A stretch of DNA of 64,000 nt from Sulfuricurvum sp. (GCA_024637295.1 JAGXFL010000001.1:126215-190214), one strand, 5' to 3'. Counted from the first letter of the stretch, positions 22,019 through 27,238 are shown. Made by a program: numbers and translations. The notes: a model not told the origin generated them from the letters alone.

Positions 22019-24445
22019 GTGCGTGTTGTGATTGTTGGGGGCGGAATATCTGCGGTATACCTTGCCAATACCATACTTCAAAAATCTCCTGCATCCGAGG
22101 TCCTTATCGTATCGGATGAGACACATCCTCCCTATGATCGTATTCATCTGTGTGCTCTTGTAGACAAAAGCCAATGCGTTGAATCCATTACACTTGATCT
22201 TCATCCAAAAGTGCGTCTGGAACTTAATCAGACTGTAACGGCTATCGATACTTCAACAAAACGTATCTTGAGTGAACATGCCGTATTTTCCTATGACAAA
22301 CTGATAATCGCAACCGGATCAATTCCAAAAACTCTGTTTGATATCGAGAATATCAGCAATGCTTCAACGTTTCGCAGTGAACAAGACAGTGAAAAAATAG
22401 CAGATGGGATAGTGGGAAAAAATGTTGTTATTGTTGGAGTAGGACCGATTGGTCTGGAATTACTGGATACCTTGATGCAAAGCCCATCGGCCAAATCAAT
22501 CACGTTGCTGGCACGAAAAGAGTACTTTTACTCACAAGACCTAAGCAAAGAAGGTATTGGCTTATTACAGGGAATATTCCAGCAGGACCCTCGCATACGT
22601 ATCGATTTTAATGATGAGATCATTGATAAGAGTATCTCTAATAATACCATTACGAGTTTGCAGACACGTCATAGAATCATCGAAGATCCTTTTTTGATAT
22701 TTGGAATAGGTATTGATCCCCATATTGATTTTGCGCGTCAAGTTCTTGAGTGCGATAAAGGTATTTTGGTAGATGACACTATGTGTACGTCCAATCCTGA
22801 TATCTATTGTGTGGGAGAGGCGGCACAGCTTCGCAGCAGCGGTTTTATCGCAGGACGTGTCAAAGAGTGTACATTGCAAGCGGATGTTGCGATTGTCACC
22901 ATGTTGGAATTAGAGACTAAAAGGTTTGTGCAAGAAGTCTCCATTGACGGGTTAAAAGTCGGATCTTTTCTTTTCGCAGATGTCAGTTCTCCAAGCTATG
23001 CTCCCAAAGACCCAGATAATGAGACTATTTTGATCACGCATGAGAATCGGGTCGATCAATACATCGTCAATCATGACAGGCTCAAACGCTTTATCGGGAT
23101 CAATACCAATATTGATTTAATGCATTTAAAGCGTTTGATCCAAAATGATGAACCTATTGATGCGGCTTATTTGTATTCAAATCGACTCAACAGTGGAAAA
23201 GGACGGTTGGTCTGCAGTTGTGAAAGTGTCTATGAAGATGAGTTGATCGATATGATCAGACTCAATGCCGTTACTACTTTTGCAGAGTTAAAGCCGTATA
23301 CCCAAGCAGGGCGGGTATGCGGACGATGTAAACAAGATATTACTGGCTTGATTTCCAAAACACCCGTTGATCCAATAGAGGCCAAACGGTTAAAAGCTCA
23401 GAGAGAAGAACAGATAAAAGAGGCCGAGTTGACATTGGTGCGTGCACGGATAGAAAAATACAATGCAATCCATCCCAAAAATCAGCTTAGCTTTGAGAAC
23501 CTTGAGGGGGCAATGGAATCCTTCGATATGGGTCAGGAATTTAACAAATGGGTATCGATGATCACGGCAACGATGAACTTGCATCCCGGATTTGAGGATG
23601 TGGTCAAAGAGGGGGTGACACAGCTCAATAGGATTCCGATCATATGGCTGGAACTTGCCGATTGCAGTGGAAACTCCGAAGGATTTATCAAATCGTCCCA
23701 TCCAAAGATCGATGATCTAATCCTCAAATATATATCGTTGGATTACCATGAACTATTGATGGCAGGGTCAGGTGATCAATCAGAAACGGTATTGGATGAT
23801 ATCGTAAAACAAGACTCTGGGAAATACGTTCTTATTGTTGAGGGAGCAGTACCTCTTGGGCTTGATGGGAAGTTTTTGCGTATCGGTGCGAAGGGAGAGA
23901 CGGGACATGCGCTACTTCAGCGTGTCGCGCAAAACGCTGCAGCTGTCATCGCCGTAGGATCGTGTGCCTATGATGGAGGCGTTGTAGCAGCAGCCCCTAA
24001 TCCTACGGGGGCTGTGGGGGTTGCAGAGGCACTGGGGAGTACCGATATCATAAATCTACCGGGATGTCCTGTCAATCCCATCAATATCGTTGGGACGCTT
24101 TTGCATTTTATGATGTTTGAAGAGTTTCCTAAACTTGATGAAAAAAATCGCCCAGATTGGGCGTATGGGGCTAGGGTACATGACAACTGTGAGCGACGAG
24201 GTCATTTTGATATGGGTGAATTTGTCTTGGAATGGGGAGATGAAGGGGCTAAAAATGGATGGTGTTTGTTTATGATGGGATGCAAAGGACCGTATGCGCA
24301 GATGAATTGCTCACAGATGAAGTTTAATGAAGGGACCAGTTGGCCTGTCCAAGCAGGTCACGGATGTTTTGCCTGTGGTGCGGGTAAAATAGCATTTGAT
24401 CAATACGCGAATCATCGACCGCTCCCAAAGGAAGTTCATGAGTAA
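22019..24445 (+). CDS. FAD/NAD(P)H oxidoreductase (NirB N-terminus-like) + BFD [2Fe-2S] + [NiFe]-hydrogenase small subunit fusion
   Basis: VVIVGGGISA, PPYDRIHL, IIATGS, VVIVGVGPIGLE, TSNPDIYCVGEAA. BFD LVCSC...AGRVCGRC. Small-subunit motifs IIWLELADCSGNSE, LIVEGAVP, AVGSCAYDGG, INLPGCP, HDNCERRG, CLFMMGCKGP...NC, AGHGCFAC. No Tat leader. Confidence 0.9.
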   Translation: MRVVIVGGGISAVYLANTILQKSPASEVLIVSDETHPPYDRIHLCALVDKSQCVESITLDLHPKVRLELNQTVTAIDTSTKRILSEHAVFSYDKLIIATGSIPKTLFDIENISNASTFRSEQDSEKIADGIVGKNVVIVGVGPIGLELLDTLMQSPSAKSITLLARKEYFYSQDLSKEGIGLLQGIFQQDPRIRIDFNDEIIDKSISNNTITSLQTRHRIIEDPFLIFGIGIDPHIDFARQVLECDKGILVDDTMCTSNPDIYCVGEAAQLRSSGFIAGRVKECTLQADVAIVTMLELETKRFVQEVSIDGLKVGSFLFADVSSPSYAPKDPDNETILITHENRVDQYIVNHDRLKRFIGINTNIDLMHLKRLIQNDEPIDAAYLYSNRLNSGKGRLVCSCESVYEDELIDMIRLNAVTTFAELKPYTQAGRVCGRCKQDITGLISKTPVDPIEAKRLKAQREEQIKEAELTLVRARIEKYNAIHPKNQLSFENLEGAMESFDMGQEFNKWVSMITATMNLHPGFEDVVKEGVTQLNRIPIIWLELADCSGNSEGFIKSSHPKIDDLILKYISLDYHELLMAGSGDQSETVLDDIVKQDSGKYVLIVEGAVPLGLDGKFLRIGAKGETGHALLQRVAQNAAAVIAVGSCAYDGGVVAAAPNPTGAVGVAEALGSTDIINLPGCPVNPINIVGTLLHFMMFEEFPKLDEKNRPDWAYGARVHDNCERRGHFDMGEFVLEWGDEGAKNGWCLFMMGCKGPYAQMNCSQMKFNEGTSWPVQAGHGCFACGAGKIAFDQYANHRPLPKEVHE

Positions 24446-26132
24446 GAAAAAAATAGTCATCGATCCTGTAACTCGTATAGAGGGGCACCTTCGTATCGAA
24501 GTAGAGGTGGATGAGAACAATGTCGTCACCGAAGCATGGGCTTCAGGACAGCTGTTTCGTGGAATCGAGACCATATTAAAAGGGCGTGATCCCAGAGATG
24601 TAGGATTGATCGCACAGCGTATATGCGGAGTGTGTACCAATGTCCATTACAGAGCATCGATAAGCGCAGTCGAGGACGCATATTCCATCACTATTCCAAA
24701 AAATGCAGAGATCATCCGAAATCTCGTCTCATTAGCCCTCTTTGTACAAGACCATGTTGTCCATTATTATCATCTCCATTCTCTTGATTTTGTCGATATC
24801 ACGAGTGCGCTACAAGCCGATTGTGCCAAAGCCGTCAAGATGGCTCAACACTATCACGAGAATCCGTACCGTAACTCTGAGGGACATTTGGAGAGTGTCA
24901 AAGAGAAGCTTGGCAGTTTTATCAAAGCAGGAAGATTGGGACTGTTTTCAAACGGATATTGGGGGCATGAGACCTATCAGCTGAATCCTGAAGAAAACTT
25001 GGTACACATGAACCATTATCTCGAAGCACTGCGGATACAACACGATATTTCTAAAGCGATCGCTATATTTGCCGGTAAGACACCCCATCCGCAAAATTTG
25101 GTCGTAGGCGGTGTGACGAGTGTCGCGGATATGCTCAATCCCCAACGGCTCAATGATTTCATGTTTATTATCAAAGAGGTACGTGAATTTTTGGAACGTG
25201 CCTATATCCCAGATATTAAAATGGTCGTCAAAGCGTATGGCGAATCTATAGCACGCGGTGAGGGACGCGGTAGCGGAAACTTTTTGTGTTGTGGTGGGTA
25301 TCGTTTGCACAACAAAGAGCAGTTGTTCGAGGGGGGTGTCATCACGGGGCATGACTTTGATGCCATACAAGCGTTTGACCCTGCCAAGATTACGGAAGAA
25401 GCTTCACGGTCGTGGTATGAGAACAATGCAGCGACTTCTCCATACGATCAAGACAGCACACCGTTTTATACCGATTTAAATGATGATGGAACGCTTAGAA
25501 GTGAAGGAAAATACAGCTGGGTCAAAGCACCGCGTTATGAGGGAAAAGTGATGGAAGTGGGTCCCGTTGCCCGTATGATCGTGGGAACAGTCAAAAACTC
25601 TCCCGTAATCAAACCTTATATGGACCGTTTTATGAATGAAACAGGGATGAAACTGATTGATTTTTCTACCAGTGTCGGACGTAATGCGGCTCGTGCTGTT
25701 GAAGCGCAGATTTGCTGCGATTATCTTTTTGATTTCATGAGTGAGTTGATCGAAAACATCAAATACTACGATGAGACCACATGGACGAAATATGTTTTTG
25801 AAGAGTTGCCAACCACCTCTAAGGGTCATGGAATATTTGAAGTACCCAGAGGGATTTTAAGCCATTTTGTTAGAATCCAAGAGGGCAAGGTCGCCAATTA
25901 TCAAGTGGTCGCACCCACAACCTGGAATGCATCACCCAAAGATGCGTCGGGCGTGAGGGGACCGTATGAAGAGGCACTTATAGGAGTTAAACTCTCTGAT
26001 CCCACCCGCCCGTTGGAAGTATTGCGGGTTGTCCATTCGTTTGATCCTTGTCTGGCATGTGCGGTTCATGTGATCGATACAAAGGGGCGTGAACTTTCAC
26101 AGTACAAAATACAGACTGTTTGCCCCGTATAA
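24438..26132 (+). CDS. [NiFe]-hydrogenase large subunit
   Basis: IDPVTRIEGHL, L1 QRICGVC, L2 SFDPCLACAVH followed by a cleavable C-terminal extension. Start MSKKK at 24438 overlaps the upstream gene. Confidence 0.95.
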   Translation: MSKKKIVIDPVTRIEGHLRIEVEVDENNVVTEAWASGQLFRGIETILKGRDPRDVGLIAQRICGVCTNVHYRASISAVEDAYSITIPKNAEIIRNLVSLALFVQDHVVHYYHLHSLDFVDITSALQADCAKAVKMAQHYHENPYRNSEGHLESVKEKLGSFIKAGRLGLFSNGYWGHETYQLNPEENLVHMNHYLEALRIQHDISKAIAIFAGKTPHPQNLVVGGVTSVADMLNPQRLNDFMFIIKEVREFLERAYIPDIKMVVKAYGESIARGEGRGSGNFLCCGGYRLHNKEQLFEGGVITGHDFDAIQAFDPAKITEEASRSWYENNAATSPYDQDSTPFYTDLNDDGTLRSEGKYSWVKAPRYEGKVMEVGPVARMIVGTVKNSPVIKPYMDRFMNETGMKLIDFSTSVGRNAARAVEAQICCDYLFDFMSELIENIKYYDETTWTKYVFEELPTTSKGHGIFEVPRGILSHFVRIQEGKVANYQVVAPTTWNASPKDASGVRGPYEEALIGVKLSDPTRPLEVLRVVHSFDPCLACAVHVIDTKGRELSQYKIQTVCPV

Positions 26133-26138
26133 ACAATC

Positions 26139-26678
26139 ATGAACAGCATCGCAATCATCGGAGTGGGTAATATCCTGTTTACAGATGATGGAATAGGGGT
26201 TTATGCAGCCAAATATCTGGAAAAAAACTACCGCTTTGAACCCGAAGTTGATATTATTGACGGTGGGACGCTGGGATTTAATCTCATGCGCTATTTTACC
26301 CATTACGATCAGGTCATACTGCTGGATACTCTGTCGATCGATGAGACGGTGGGATCGACCTATCATCTCCCCTCAGATGCTCTTCTGGGGTTTGGAGATA
26401 CGCGCAAGACGGTACATGAGGTCGAAGTGACACAAATGGTCGAGTTGGCATCCATGATGGATGCCAAGGCTCATATAAGTGTTCTTGGAATCATCCCCTC
26501 AGATATCCAAACAGTTGGCATGGATTTGAGTCCCGCAGTCAAAGAGAGCTTTGGAACATTAATACAAACTCTCTTGAAAATATTAGAAGAAGCAGGAATC
26601 ACCGTAACGGTAAATGATCATTTGGTTACACCCACTGAGATCATAGAATCGTATCGTGATCCAAAGGTCGGTAGATGA
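26139..26678 (+). CDS. Hydrogenase maturation endopeptidase (HyaD/HybD family)
   Basis: IIGVGNILFTDDGIGV, IDGGTLG, TVHEVEV. Confidence 0.93.
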   Translation: MNSIAIIGVGNILFTDDGIGVYAAKYLEKNYRFEPEVDIIDGGTLGFNLMRYFTHYDQVILLDTLSIDETVGSTYHLPSDALLGFGDTRKTVHEVEVTQMVELASMMDAKAHISVLGIIPSDIQTVGMDLSPAVKESFGTLIQTLLKILEEAGITVTVNDHLVTPTEIIESYRDPKVGR

Positions 26679-26686
26679 GGGGAAAG

Positions 26687-27238
26687 CTATTGGTTCATCA
26701 ATTCTTCACGTAATTTGAGTAATTCTTCACGATACCGTTTTCCATCCCCATAGGGGATGAATTTTGTATAATGTAGGTGGTGAGTTCGAAGTTTTCGTGC
26801 ATGACGAATCGGACACCAAAACTGCTCTGTTCGTGCTACTATTTCAGTCGCATAACCCAAAAGACCGTTAAAATAAGAGCAATAAAAGCAGTTTATCTTT
26901 TCGACAATATTTAAAAATTCCAAACTCGCACGGTCATAAACAAAATAGTTTTGGCGTGCAAGCGGAGCGATTTTGTAAACACGAAAATTGATCATTTGAT
27001 AGAGATACAAAAAAACTTCCAAAATAAAGGCAGGGATAATACCCGCATAGATGATAGGAGCAGTTAGTATATGAAGAAGCGGAGTGCGTGCAAAATAGTG
27101 AAGCAGACCCTCTTTGAATTTTTTTTGAGCAGTCAGTAAATCAGAGGAAAGCTTCTCTTCTTCTTGTTCGAACTCTTTTTTTAGGTTCTCTTCGAGAACA
27201 CGAATCGCGTCAAAGATTTCGTCGATTTTTGAGTTCAT
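26687..27238 (-). CDS. Conserved-looking hypothetical membrane protein with Cys/His motifs
   Basis: 183-aa ORF with one hydrophobic segment, KINCFYCSYFNG and EQFWCPIRH. Confidence 0.65.
   Translation of the reverse strand: MNSKIDEIFDAIRVLEENLKKEFEQEEEKLSSDLLTAQKKFKEGLLHYFARTPLLHILTAPIIYAGIIPAFILEVFLYLYQMINFRVYKIAPLARQNYFVYDRASLEFLNIVEKINCFYCSYFNGLLGYATEIVARTEQFWCPIRHARKLRTHHLHYTKFIPYGDGKRYREELLKLREELMNQ

Follow-up and report, generated by a model that had tools for sequence, protein, structure and literature searches.

The hydrogenase operon and its fused small subunit

The DNA considered here is a stretch of 64,000 nucleotides from Sulfuricurvum sp. (GCA_024637295.1, JAGXFL010000001.1:126215-190214), which we call the window and number from its first letter; between positions 22019 and 26678, on the plus strand, it carries an operon for a [NiFe]-hydrogenase whose small subunit is fused to a flavoprotein. 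The fused gene (22019..24445, +) encodes 808 amino acids (aa) in the order flavoprotein, BFD domain, linker and [NiFe] small subunit, an assignment based on Pfam and NCBIfam profiles and on orthology with the protein Tcr_2038, discussed below. It starts with a GTG codon; 5 nt upstream of this lies an AAAGGGG ribosome-binding site, and at 21 nt upstream there is an in-frame stop. The Pfam series, all four domains of which score over their gathering cut-offs, runs Pyr_redox_2 (residues 2-269), Fer2_BFD (397-446), Oxidored_q6 (549-696) and NiFe_hyd_SSU_C (716-788); together with a frame unbroken from 22019 to 24445 on the plus strand, it bears out the initial annotation of the region, which had described one continuous open reading frame (ORF) of this length and composition.

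The first part of the protein, about residues 1-385 (22019..23170, +), is a domain for flavin adenine dinucleotide (FAD) and nicotinamide adenine dinucleotide (phosphate) (NAD(P)H), of the ferredoxin-reductase type found at the N-terminus of NirB (Pyr_redox_2, E = 1.4e-32). Positions 1-471 of the NCBIfam model for NirB, TIGR02374, correspond to residues 3-451 of the fusion. An FAD motif, VVIVGGGISAVY, occupies aa 3-14 and an NAD(P) motif, VGVGPIGLELL, aa 139-149, and an invariant arginine, Arg166, follows the second beta-strand. Next comes a BFD-like [2Fe-2S] domain (aa 397-446; 23207..23356, +) with ligands C399, C401, C434 and C437, which scores 42.3 bits with PF04324 against a cut-off of 26. 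A linker (aa 452-540; 23372..23638, +), helical in an AlphaFold2 (AF2) prediction, is homologous, according to BLASTP, to the long N-terminal leader of the small subunit HydA that Campylobacterota export by twin-arginine translocation (Tat), and it contains at aa 503-525 (23525..23593, +) a vestigial twin-arginine signal, DMGQEFNKWVSMITATMNLHPGF. The [NiFe] small-subunit core fills aa 541-808 (23639..24442, +; PF01058, PF14720 and TIGR00391), the hydrogenase small-subunit model TIGR00391 matching residues 506-788 with 366 bits against a cut-off of 179.5.

The core has the ligands of three iron-sulfur clusters: C549, N552, C649 and C683 for the proximal one, H721, C724, C749 and C755 for the distal one, and C764, C783 and C786 for the medial one, which with its three cysteines would be a [3Fe-4S] cluster. 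There is no RRxFxK motif in the 808-aa protein, whose sole RR pair sits in the distal-cluster motif HDNCERR, and no segment as hydrophobic as a membrane helix. Only 22 residues lie beyond the medial CxxC, compared with about 65, anchor included, in the Tat-exported HydA that the same genome encodes. The absence of an RRxFLK leader and of a C-terminal anchor, noted at the outset, is therefore supported by both the motif and the hydrophobicity checks.

The large-subunit gene (24438..26132, +; 564 aa; PF00374, E = 6e-200) most likely starts at the ATG at 24438, behind the ribosome-binding site AAAGGAAG, so that it overlaps the stop codon of the small-subunit gene (ATGAGTAA). The protein carries the motifs QRICGVC (in full QRICGVCTNVH) and SFDPCLACAVH and a cleavable C-terminal tail, and it is followed by a maturation endopeptidase of the HyaD/HybD type (26139..26678, +; 179 aa; PF01750, E = 3e-24; TIGR00072, 126.7 bits against a cut-off of 47.45). 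No cytochrome b gene is found among the ORFs neighbouring the operon, and in this respect too the first description, a large subunit and a protease and no cytochrome b, agrees with the genes that are there. A scan of the locus for promoters and terminators gave nothing over the shuffled expectation.

The group 1 character first ascribed to this large subunit, with its length of about 564 aa and its two motifs, is upheld by structural databases and by phylogeny. Its best match in the PDB is a group 1b enzyme (1h2a, 489 bits), ahead of the group 2a enzyme Huc (189 bits) and of group 1h (144 bits), and it scores far below the thresholds of the group 3 profiles (NF040828, ShyA, 104 bits for a cut-off of 700; NF040832, 60 bits for a cut-off of 880). 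It is 46% identical, C-terminal tail included, to the HydB of the same genome, and 23% identical to a group-2-like large subunit also encoded there. Motifs, PDB matches, a tree that includes the 1c and 1d enzymes of Escherichia coli, and the published assignment of an orthologue all point to an affiliation with group 1b, and we call the subunit 1b-like. Tat export to the periplasm (the twin arginines are lost), the C-terminal anchor and a gene in the operon for a cytochrome b or c3 partner that feeds the quinone pool, which are traits of that group, are absent here.

An enzyme type already described

The initial annotation had presented this arrangement as a candidate new architecture. This claim does not stand. 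The 90%-identity cluster that holds the small subunit of Hydrogenovibrio sp. 3SP14C1 includes UniRef100_Q31DZ5, which is Tcr_2038 of Hydrogenovibrio (Thiomicrospira) crunogenus XCL-2, and the window protein is 61% identical to Tcr_2038 over 811 residues, end to end. As early as 2006, Scott et al. (PMC1635747) described the small subunit of XCL-2, a bacterium from a deep-sea vent, as a hydrogenase domain joined to a pyridine nucleotide-disulphide oxidoreductase domain that has sites for FAD and NADH; in their proposal, the enzyme is cytoplasmic and couples H2 directly to NAD(H) or, alternatively, is a sink for reductant. Hansen and Perner (2016, PMC4744846) placed the enzyme, with its small subunit of 813 aa, in group 1b, reported it also from Sulfuricurvum kujiense and others, and judged its Fe-S motifs atypical. 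Gonnella et al. (2019, PMC6501319) found the same cluster in strain SP-41, together with a second, Tat-dependent enzyme of group 1d that is able to explain the membrane-bound activity of that strain.

The operon in the window and "cluster I" of XCL-2 and SP-41 (Tcr_2038/Tcr_2037) have in common the domain order, a CxxN motif at the proximal cluster, the lack of a Tat leader, an anchor and a cytochrome b, and the clade of the large subunit. They differ in their hosts, XCL-2 being a gammaproteobacterium and the window host a member of Campylobacterota with the reductive tricarboxylic acid (rTCA) cycle, and in their surroundings, since Tcr_2035-2043 of XCL-2 has been described as one operon with assembly genes (PMC4744846, PMC1635747). 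The locus is thus a further member of an enzyme type that has been described and is biochemically uncharacterised, so that the concern that it might belong to an already characterised subgroup is justified as to the description and not as to the biochemistry. Neither the BFD domain nor the NADP-type signature nor the vestige of a Tat leader is mentioned in the XCL-2 papers. What our analysis may add is modest: the fossil Tat leader, the BFD domain as a likely bridge between the clusters and FAD, the NADP-type signature and the intactness of the ligands, all read from sequence, and besides these a single origin with transfer to Gammaproteobacteria, a frequent neighbour of the Ech type and a host without NuoF. 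The architecture was published twenty years ago and has had no biochemical test since; the question that it raises is therefore real and not new, and we regard as our main result the correction of two points, the claim of novelty and the description of the proximal asparagine as "unusual".

The fusion across genomes

We confirmed 247 stretches with relatives of the locus in species-representative genomes, and the counts by locus given throughout refer to the best 80 of these 247. A full-length fusion, with 60-89% identity, is present in all 80, the closest relatives being metagenome-assembled genomes (MAGs) of Sulfuricurvum. More than 100 protein clusters, at 65-100% identity, share its length and Pfam series. 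When 200 residues spanning the junction were searched against 151 evenly sampled genomes of Campylobacterales, 15, which belong to seven families, matched over the full length, with frames of 809-871 aa; in the rest, the matches were solely to ordinary small subunits of about 400 aa. Represented among the 80 loci are Sulfurovum sp. CS9, with its complete genome, and, from Gammaproteobacteria, the isolates Hydrogenovibrio sp. 3SP14C1 and Thiomicrorhabdus sp. ZW0627, and the same frame, of 807-814 aa and with a conserved junction, occurs in complete isolate genomes such as those of Sulfurovum sp. CS9 and H. crunogenus. The idea that the fusion is an artefact of assembly or annotation which joined two genes has no observation in its favour and can hence be given practically no credence: it would have to have arisen at 80 independent loci, in 15 of 151 genomes and in complete genomes of isolates, always with the same junction sequence. 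The survey that had been asked of such a fusion thus answers in favour of its reality.

Among the best 150 matches in 1.84 billion representative proteins, there was one full-length representative (53% identity), accompanied by fragments, for which reason we consider the family a compact one; no independent second fusion was found among these 150, and no other match covered both halves of the protein. Several other long small subunits, of 545-808 aa, differ from it in architecture, with their domain near the N-terminus and a long C-terminal extension (P0165, for instance, has 808 aa with the domain at 130-387).

Three observations on single relatives may be recorded here. In the MAG of Sulfuricurvum sp. 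PC08-66 (L077 7962-12965), the fused gene is followed by four small unrelated ORFs and no large subunit, which may reflect an insertion or a rearrangement. A contig labelled as a Candidatus Izemoplasmatales MAG (L069) carries a fused hydrogenase and a HydB near-identical to those of Sulfuricurvum sp. MLSB; this HydB groups with Sulfuricurvum HydB in our tree, and the contig is probably a mis-binned piece of Sulfuricurvum. Finally, apparent in-frame stops in the large subunits of two relatives were dismissed, as they are the natural stop codons.

Probable descent from an exported hydrogenase

The relationship of the fusion to the exported enzymes of Campylobacterota is apparent from the linker. 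In BLASTP, residues 454-802 of the fusion align with residues 15-360 of the HydA encoded in the same genome (46% identity), the leader IDRREFMKWASATTAMLMLPPMF of the latter pairing with DMGQEFNKWVSMITATMNLHPGF of the fusion, from which the arginine pair has disappeared. Since the alignment continues through the linker, and leaders of ordinary HydA from other genomes match it as well, the helical linker is the long leader with which Campylobacterota HydA begins, minus the twin arginines. No RR.F.K motif occurs in any of the 80 fusions, where a residual consensus x-[RKHQ]-E-[FY]-N-x-W-[VI]-S-M is found in its place, and across the same 80 the last cluster motif is followed by only 17-34 residues.

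In a maximum-likelihood tree of 71 large subunits, 39 of them linked to a fusion and with E. coli Hyd-1 and Hyd-2 as outgroup, all 39 fusion-linked sequences form one clade (support of 100 in the Shimodaira-Hasegawa-like approximate likelihood-ratio test, SH-aLRT), which makes up an unresolved three-way split with two clades of ordinary HydB. The fusion clade is thus a sister group to, or a sub-lineage of, the sampled Campylobacterota HydB, and has a single origin. Three gammaproteobacterial large subunits nest within the Campylobacterota part of this clade, indicating horizontal transfer.

The tree also bears on the proximal cluster, in the motif of which (23639-23700 in the window) an asparagine replaces the second cysteine. 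There are two ordinary types of Tat-exported HydA in Campylobacterota, one with WIELQDCAGNSE (CxxN), which is paired with the main HydB clade, and one with WLHMAECTGCSE (CxxC), the canonical or CTGCSE type, which is paired with a separate HydB clade. The C-x-G-N type is the main one across many families of Campylobacterales and is the type of the window's own host, whose exported HydA reads CAGNSE at the proximal site (L006 8775-10013); CxxN was likewise found in 79 of the 79 fusions caught by the motif search, 80 having been searched. The asparagine is therefore inherited from an ordinary exported enzyme; as a lineage trait of ordinary Campylobacterota HydA, it points neither to a chimera nor to a cluster site that is defective.

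The Campylobacterota HydABC enzyme (group 1b, Wolinella succinogenes type) shares with the fusion not only CxxN but also the three-cysteine medial site, the histidine-ligated distal motif, the C-terminal tail and the protease. Unlike HydABC, the fusion lacks the twin-arginine pair, the membrane helix at the C-terminus and the cytochrome b, possesses in addition a flavoprotein and a [2Fe-2S] domain, and is predicted to be cytoplasmic and to use an acceptor other than quinone. The scenario that we favour is that of a single event, in a lineage that was sister to, or part of, the Tat-exported, cytochrome-b-linked HydAB of Campylobacterota: its small subunit would have dropped its twin arginines and its membrane anchor, retained the remainder of the leader as a helical linker, and gained at its N-terminus a NirB-type module with FAD, an NAD(P)H site and a BFD [2Fe-2S] domain.

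The flavoprotein half and its acceptor

Neither GGGIxAVY, the FAD motif, nor GxGPIxLE, the NAD(P) motif, varies among 23 diverse fusions with identities as low as 61%, or in the representative with 53%, and the same holds for the four cysteines of the BFD domain and the eleven cluster ligands of the small subunit. The residue after the second Rossmann beta-strand is an arginine in 79 of the 80 fusions and is never acidic. The triplet ARK, to which it belongs, aligns with ARG in the E175A/T176R/Q177G mutant of BphA4, which was reportedly made to shift the preference of that enzyme from NADH to NADPH. The conserved arginine, the lack of an acidic residue and the likeness to the BphA4 triplet lead us to infer a preference for NADP(H).

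AF2, run with an alignment of 23 sequences, predicts residues 1-450 with confidence (predicted local distance difference test, pLDDT, about 90) and a helix at 452-484. Foldseek, with residues 1-400, gives template-modelling (TM) scores of 0.79-0.85 to putidaredoxin, BphA4, toluene-dioxygenase and rubredoxin reductases, all of which pass electrons between NAD(P)H/FAD on one side and a small iron-sulfur protein on the other. The NAD(P)H-nitrite reductases NirB/NasB have FAD, NAD(P)H and BFD [2Fe-2S] domains in the same order as the fusion. The fusion has no match to the sirohaem domain NIR_SIR and its whole-protein NirB score is 127.9 bits for a cut-off of 578; in contrast to NirB and the ferredoxin reductases, it has its module joined to the small subunit of a hydrogenase, where the normal direction would be reduction of FAD.

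One may ask whether the flavoprotein hands its electrons not to a pyridine nucleotide but to O2 or peroxide, to rubredoxin, or to a disulfide or polysulfide, which would make of the enzyme an H2-dependent detoxifying or sulfur reductase. The closest PDB sequence matches of this half do include the "NADH oxidase/nitrite reductase" of P. furiosus (1xhc) and the NirB-family protein 3klj, with coenzyme A (CoA)-disulfide and persulfide reductases at lower scores, and a rhodanese gene lies divergently upstream of the fusion in the window. We nevertheless find this hypothesis distinctly unlikely. GxGPIxLE and Arg166 are kept in practically every fusion, as one would expect of a nucleotide site that works; the rhodanese gene is a neighbour in just six of the 80 loci; and we read Cys45 as belonging to the ferredoxin-reductase motif "PYDRxxLS/C" and not to the active-site context of CoADR or Nox.

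The proposed reaction and the evidence against it

We thus propose that the two subunits encoded by the operon form a cytoplasmic [NiFe]-hydrogenase of the XCL-2 type, whose reaction is probably H2:NAD(P)+ oxidoreduction. H2 would be split at the Ni-Fe site, and the electrons would pass along the small-subunit clusters in the order proximal, medial, distal, then to the [2Fe-2S] cluster in cis and on to FAD, which would reduce NAD(P)+ by hydride transfer; NADP+ would be the likelier coenzyme, given the conserved arginine, and the reaction would be reversible in principle. Our analysis establishes the architecture and its conservation, the constancy of the cofactor ligands, the lack of export and anchor signals, the orthology with Tcr_2038 and the single origin; the path of the electrons, the coenzyme and the direction are inferred. 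The initial interpretation, in which electrons run from H2 by Fe-S clusters and BFD to FAD and NAD(P)+, is consistent in its anatomy and wiring with the tests made here and agrees with the hypothesis of Scott et al. for the XCL-2 orthologue (PMC1635747), its novelty being the part that failed.

This enzyme would resemble the hydrogenases of group 3 (3d, HoxFUYH; 3b, sulfhydrogenase) in its predicted reaction of H2 with NAD(P)+ and in its cytoplasmic location. The latter, however, have a group 3 large subunit and use separate HoxF/NuoF (flavin mononucleotide, FMN) or GltD-like subunits, modules unrelated to those of the fusion. The group 2d enzymes (Hua, Aquifex hydrogenase III type) are like the fusion in being cytoplasmic, in having no Tat leader and in occurring in the same organisms, although they pair a short large subunit that has no C-terminal extension with a small subunit of about 300 aa, and those of Campylobacterota and Aquificota have been proposed to supply reductant for the rTCA cycle (PMC5401914, PMC4584964). 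That the window enzyme might itself be a Hua was rejected, as the genome has a separate group-2-like pair, with a large subunit only 23% identical.

Several facts weigh against the proposed reaction. XCL-2, which has this hydrogenase only, showed neither H2 consumption nor activity in soluble or membrane fractions (PMC4744846); the soluble fraction of SP-41 was also without hydrogenase activity (PMC6501319); and for Sulfurimonas autotrophica, a reported carrier of the fusion, growth on H2 was not demonstrated and extracts had no uptake activity (PMC4584964). In a literature search that left subscription-only papers aside, H2:NAD(P)+ activity was reported for no member of the family. A medial cluster that would be a high-potential [3Fe-4S] one, together with the proximal asparagine, is unlike the known NAD-linked (group 3) enzymes; the preference for NADP follows a sequence rule; and the AF2 model is unreliable past residue 480, the small-subunit half having a pLDDT below 50 and the whole a predicted TM score (pTM) of 0.56. 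It is in part because of the negative activity data from XCL-2 and S. autotrophica that we do not hold the H2:NAD(P)+ reading more firmly than as the probable one.

The same data could mean that the fused enzyme is not catalytically competent alone. It might serve in regulation or sensing, be a paralogue in decay, or depend on a partner, for example the cytochrome b of another cluster, to reach the membrane and the quinone pool. Besides the inactivity of XCL-2 and the verdict of Hansen and Perner on the Fe-S motifs, this could invoke the suggestion of Gonnella et al. that the enzyme is anchored through the cytochrome b of the second cluster (PMC6501319), and the situation in Sulfurovum sp. CS9, where a gene for a cytochrome b561 of 193 aa (L054 7398-7979; PF01292, E = 3e-26) lies immediately upstream of the fusion and could mean membrane association in some lineages. 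Cytochrome b is, however, outside the neighbour families common to at least six of the 80 loci. Moreover, all cluster ligands are invariant, the sole deviation, cysteine to asparagine, being common to the main Tat-exported HydA, and the gene is intact and of full length in 80 of the 80 best loci. Regulatory hydrogenases lack both the C-terminal tail of the large subunit and a dedicated protease; here the tail and the protease are present. In three of the sampled genomes, the fusion-linked large subunit is the sole one of the PF00374 type, and the enzyme thus the only group 1 or 2 hydrogenase, so that it must have a stand-alone role. Taken together, these observations make an enzyme incompetent by itself very unlikely in our opinion.

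Host, neighbourhood and direction of the reaction

The host genome, estimated to be 100% complete, encodes three [NiFe] large subunits. It has an ATP-citrate lyase, and no match to PF01512, the NuoF/HoxF-type domain; the host is on these grounds an autotroph that uses the rTCA cycle and lacks the module to which NAD(H) usually binds. For such an organism, the H2:NAD(P)+ reaction would be a direct way from H2 to reduced pyridine nucleotide, with no need for reverse electron transport. Supplying the rTCA cycle, as first suggested, cannot be the general role of the enzyme, because it is found in the same form in Hydrogenovibrio and Thiomicrorhabdus, which fix carbon by the Calvin-Benson-Bassham (CBB) cycle.

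The only universal neighbours across the 80 loci are the fused small subunit and the large subunit themselves. In 20-23 of the 80, the fusion operon directly follows, on the same strand, a six-gene operon for a group 4 hydrogenase of the Ech/Hyc type (for example L045 435-5451), with NuoL-, NuoH-, NuoB- and NuoC-like proteins, a group 4 large subunit and a 2x[4Fe-4S] protein, an adjacency that suggests a functional pairing in which reduced ferredoxin and NAD(P)H would both be made from H2. A Tat-HydA lies downstream of the fusion in 22 of the 80 loci, and a complete hupE-hypBCDEA...hypF operon surrounds the structural genes in Hydrogenovibrio sp. 3SP14C1 and in Thiomicrorhabdus. In the window's host, the hyp genes are away from the fusion operon and only the protease follows the structural genes.

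Whether the enzyme works in the direction of H2 uptake has also to be considered, as the same chemistry run backwards would make a redox valve which oxidises NAD(P)H and evolves H2 when acceptors are scarce, consuming cytoplasmic protons. With E0' values of -414 mV for H2 and -320 mV for NAD(P)H, the reaction is near reversible at low H2, and NAD(P)H-driven evolution is unfavourable unless H2 is very low. A valve would account for the missing H2 uptake in strains with only the fused enzyme, and it corresponds to the "reductant sink" proposed for XCL-2 under scarcity of sulfur or oxygen (PMC1635747). On the other hand, the fused-enzyme cluster of SP-41, the function of which was left open, reaches its peak expression with H2 as sole electron donor (PMC6501319), and group 1b cores are generally biased towards uptake; the Ech-type neighbour, found in about a quarter of the loci, could serve either direction. 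We therefore see a redox valve as unlikely, and oxidation of H2 with NAD(P)+ as the direction to be preferred.

We would tentatively go one step further and suggest, as a possibility for which the odds seem to us somewhat less than even, that this family is the missing direct link from H2 to NADPH in chemolithoautotrophs without a NuoF-type NAD(H) site. A periplasmic group 1b enzyme would have been drawn into the cytoplasm, its leader recycled as a linker, and provided with a NirB-type diaphorase unrelated to HoxFU; in combination with the Ech-type group 4 hydrogenase that precedes it in roughly one locus out of four, it would yield both NADPH and reduced ferredoxin from H2, again with no reverse electron transport. 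If true, reduction of a pyridine nucleotide would be shown here for the first time in a group 1 hydrogenase, and a widespread enzyme would allow autotrophs that oxidise sulfur and hydrogen to make NAD(P)H directly from H2. Carriers amount to about 10% of the sampled Campylobacterales, and their habitats are aquifers, sulfidic caves and hydrothermal vents; estimates of their energy yield would have to change. It would also imply that a diaphorase design evolved independently of group 3, with a possible use in H2-driven regeneration of cofactors.

Other genes of the window and of the host

The genes that surround the operon in the window do not appear to belong to it. Convergent with the protease gene is an ORF of 183 aa (26687-27238, -), without a Pfam match and with stretches rich in cysteine and histidine (CFYCSYF..., FWCPIRHARKLRTHHLHY), which adjoins the operon in only two of the 80 loci. 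Between 27297 and 29783 follow genes for a radical-SAM protein (341 aa), a Memo-like protein (275 aa) and an AMMECR1-like protein (182 aa), which, judged by sequence features alone, resemble an AmmeMemoRadiSam system. Conservation of the neighbourhood across the 80 loci led us to reject these genes, the 183-aa ORF and the rhodanese gene as conserved partners of the hydrogenase.

The other hydrogenases of the host lie in an island on another contig (C5, L006 5856-17845), which comprises a TetR-like gene, the group-2-like pair (305 and 431 aa, without a C-terminal tail), hydABC, hypF-like genes and two proteases. The products of hydABC are a HydA of 412 aa, with DRREFMKW in its Tat leader, a HydB of 591 aa and a cytochrome b of 236 aa. 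Two HypF-like proteins, of 640 and 754 aa, are encoded in the island, the one of 640 aa appearing to be without the N-terminal acylphosphatase part.

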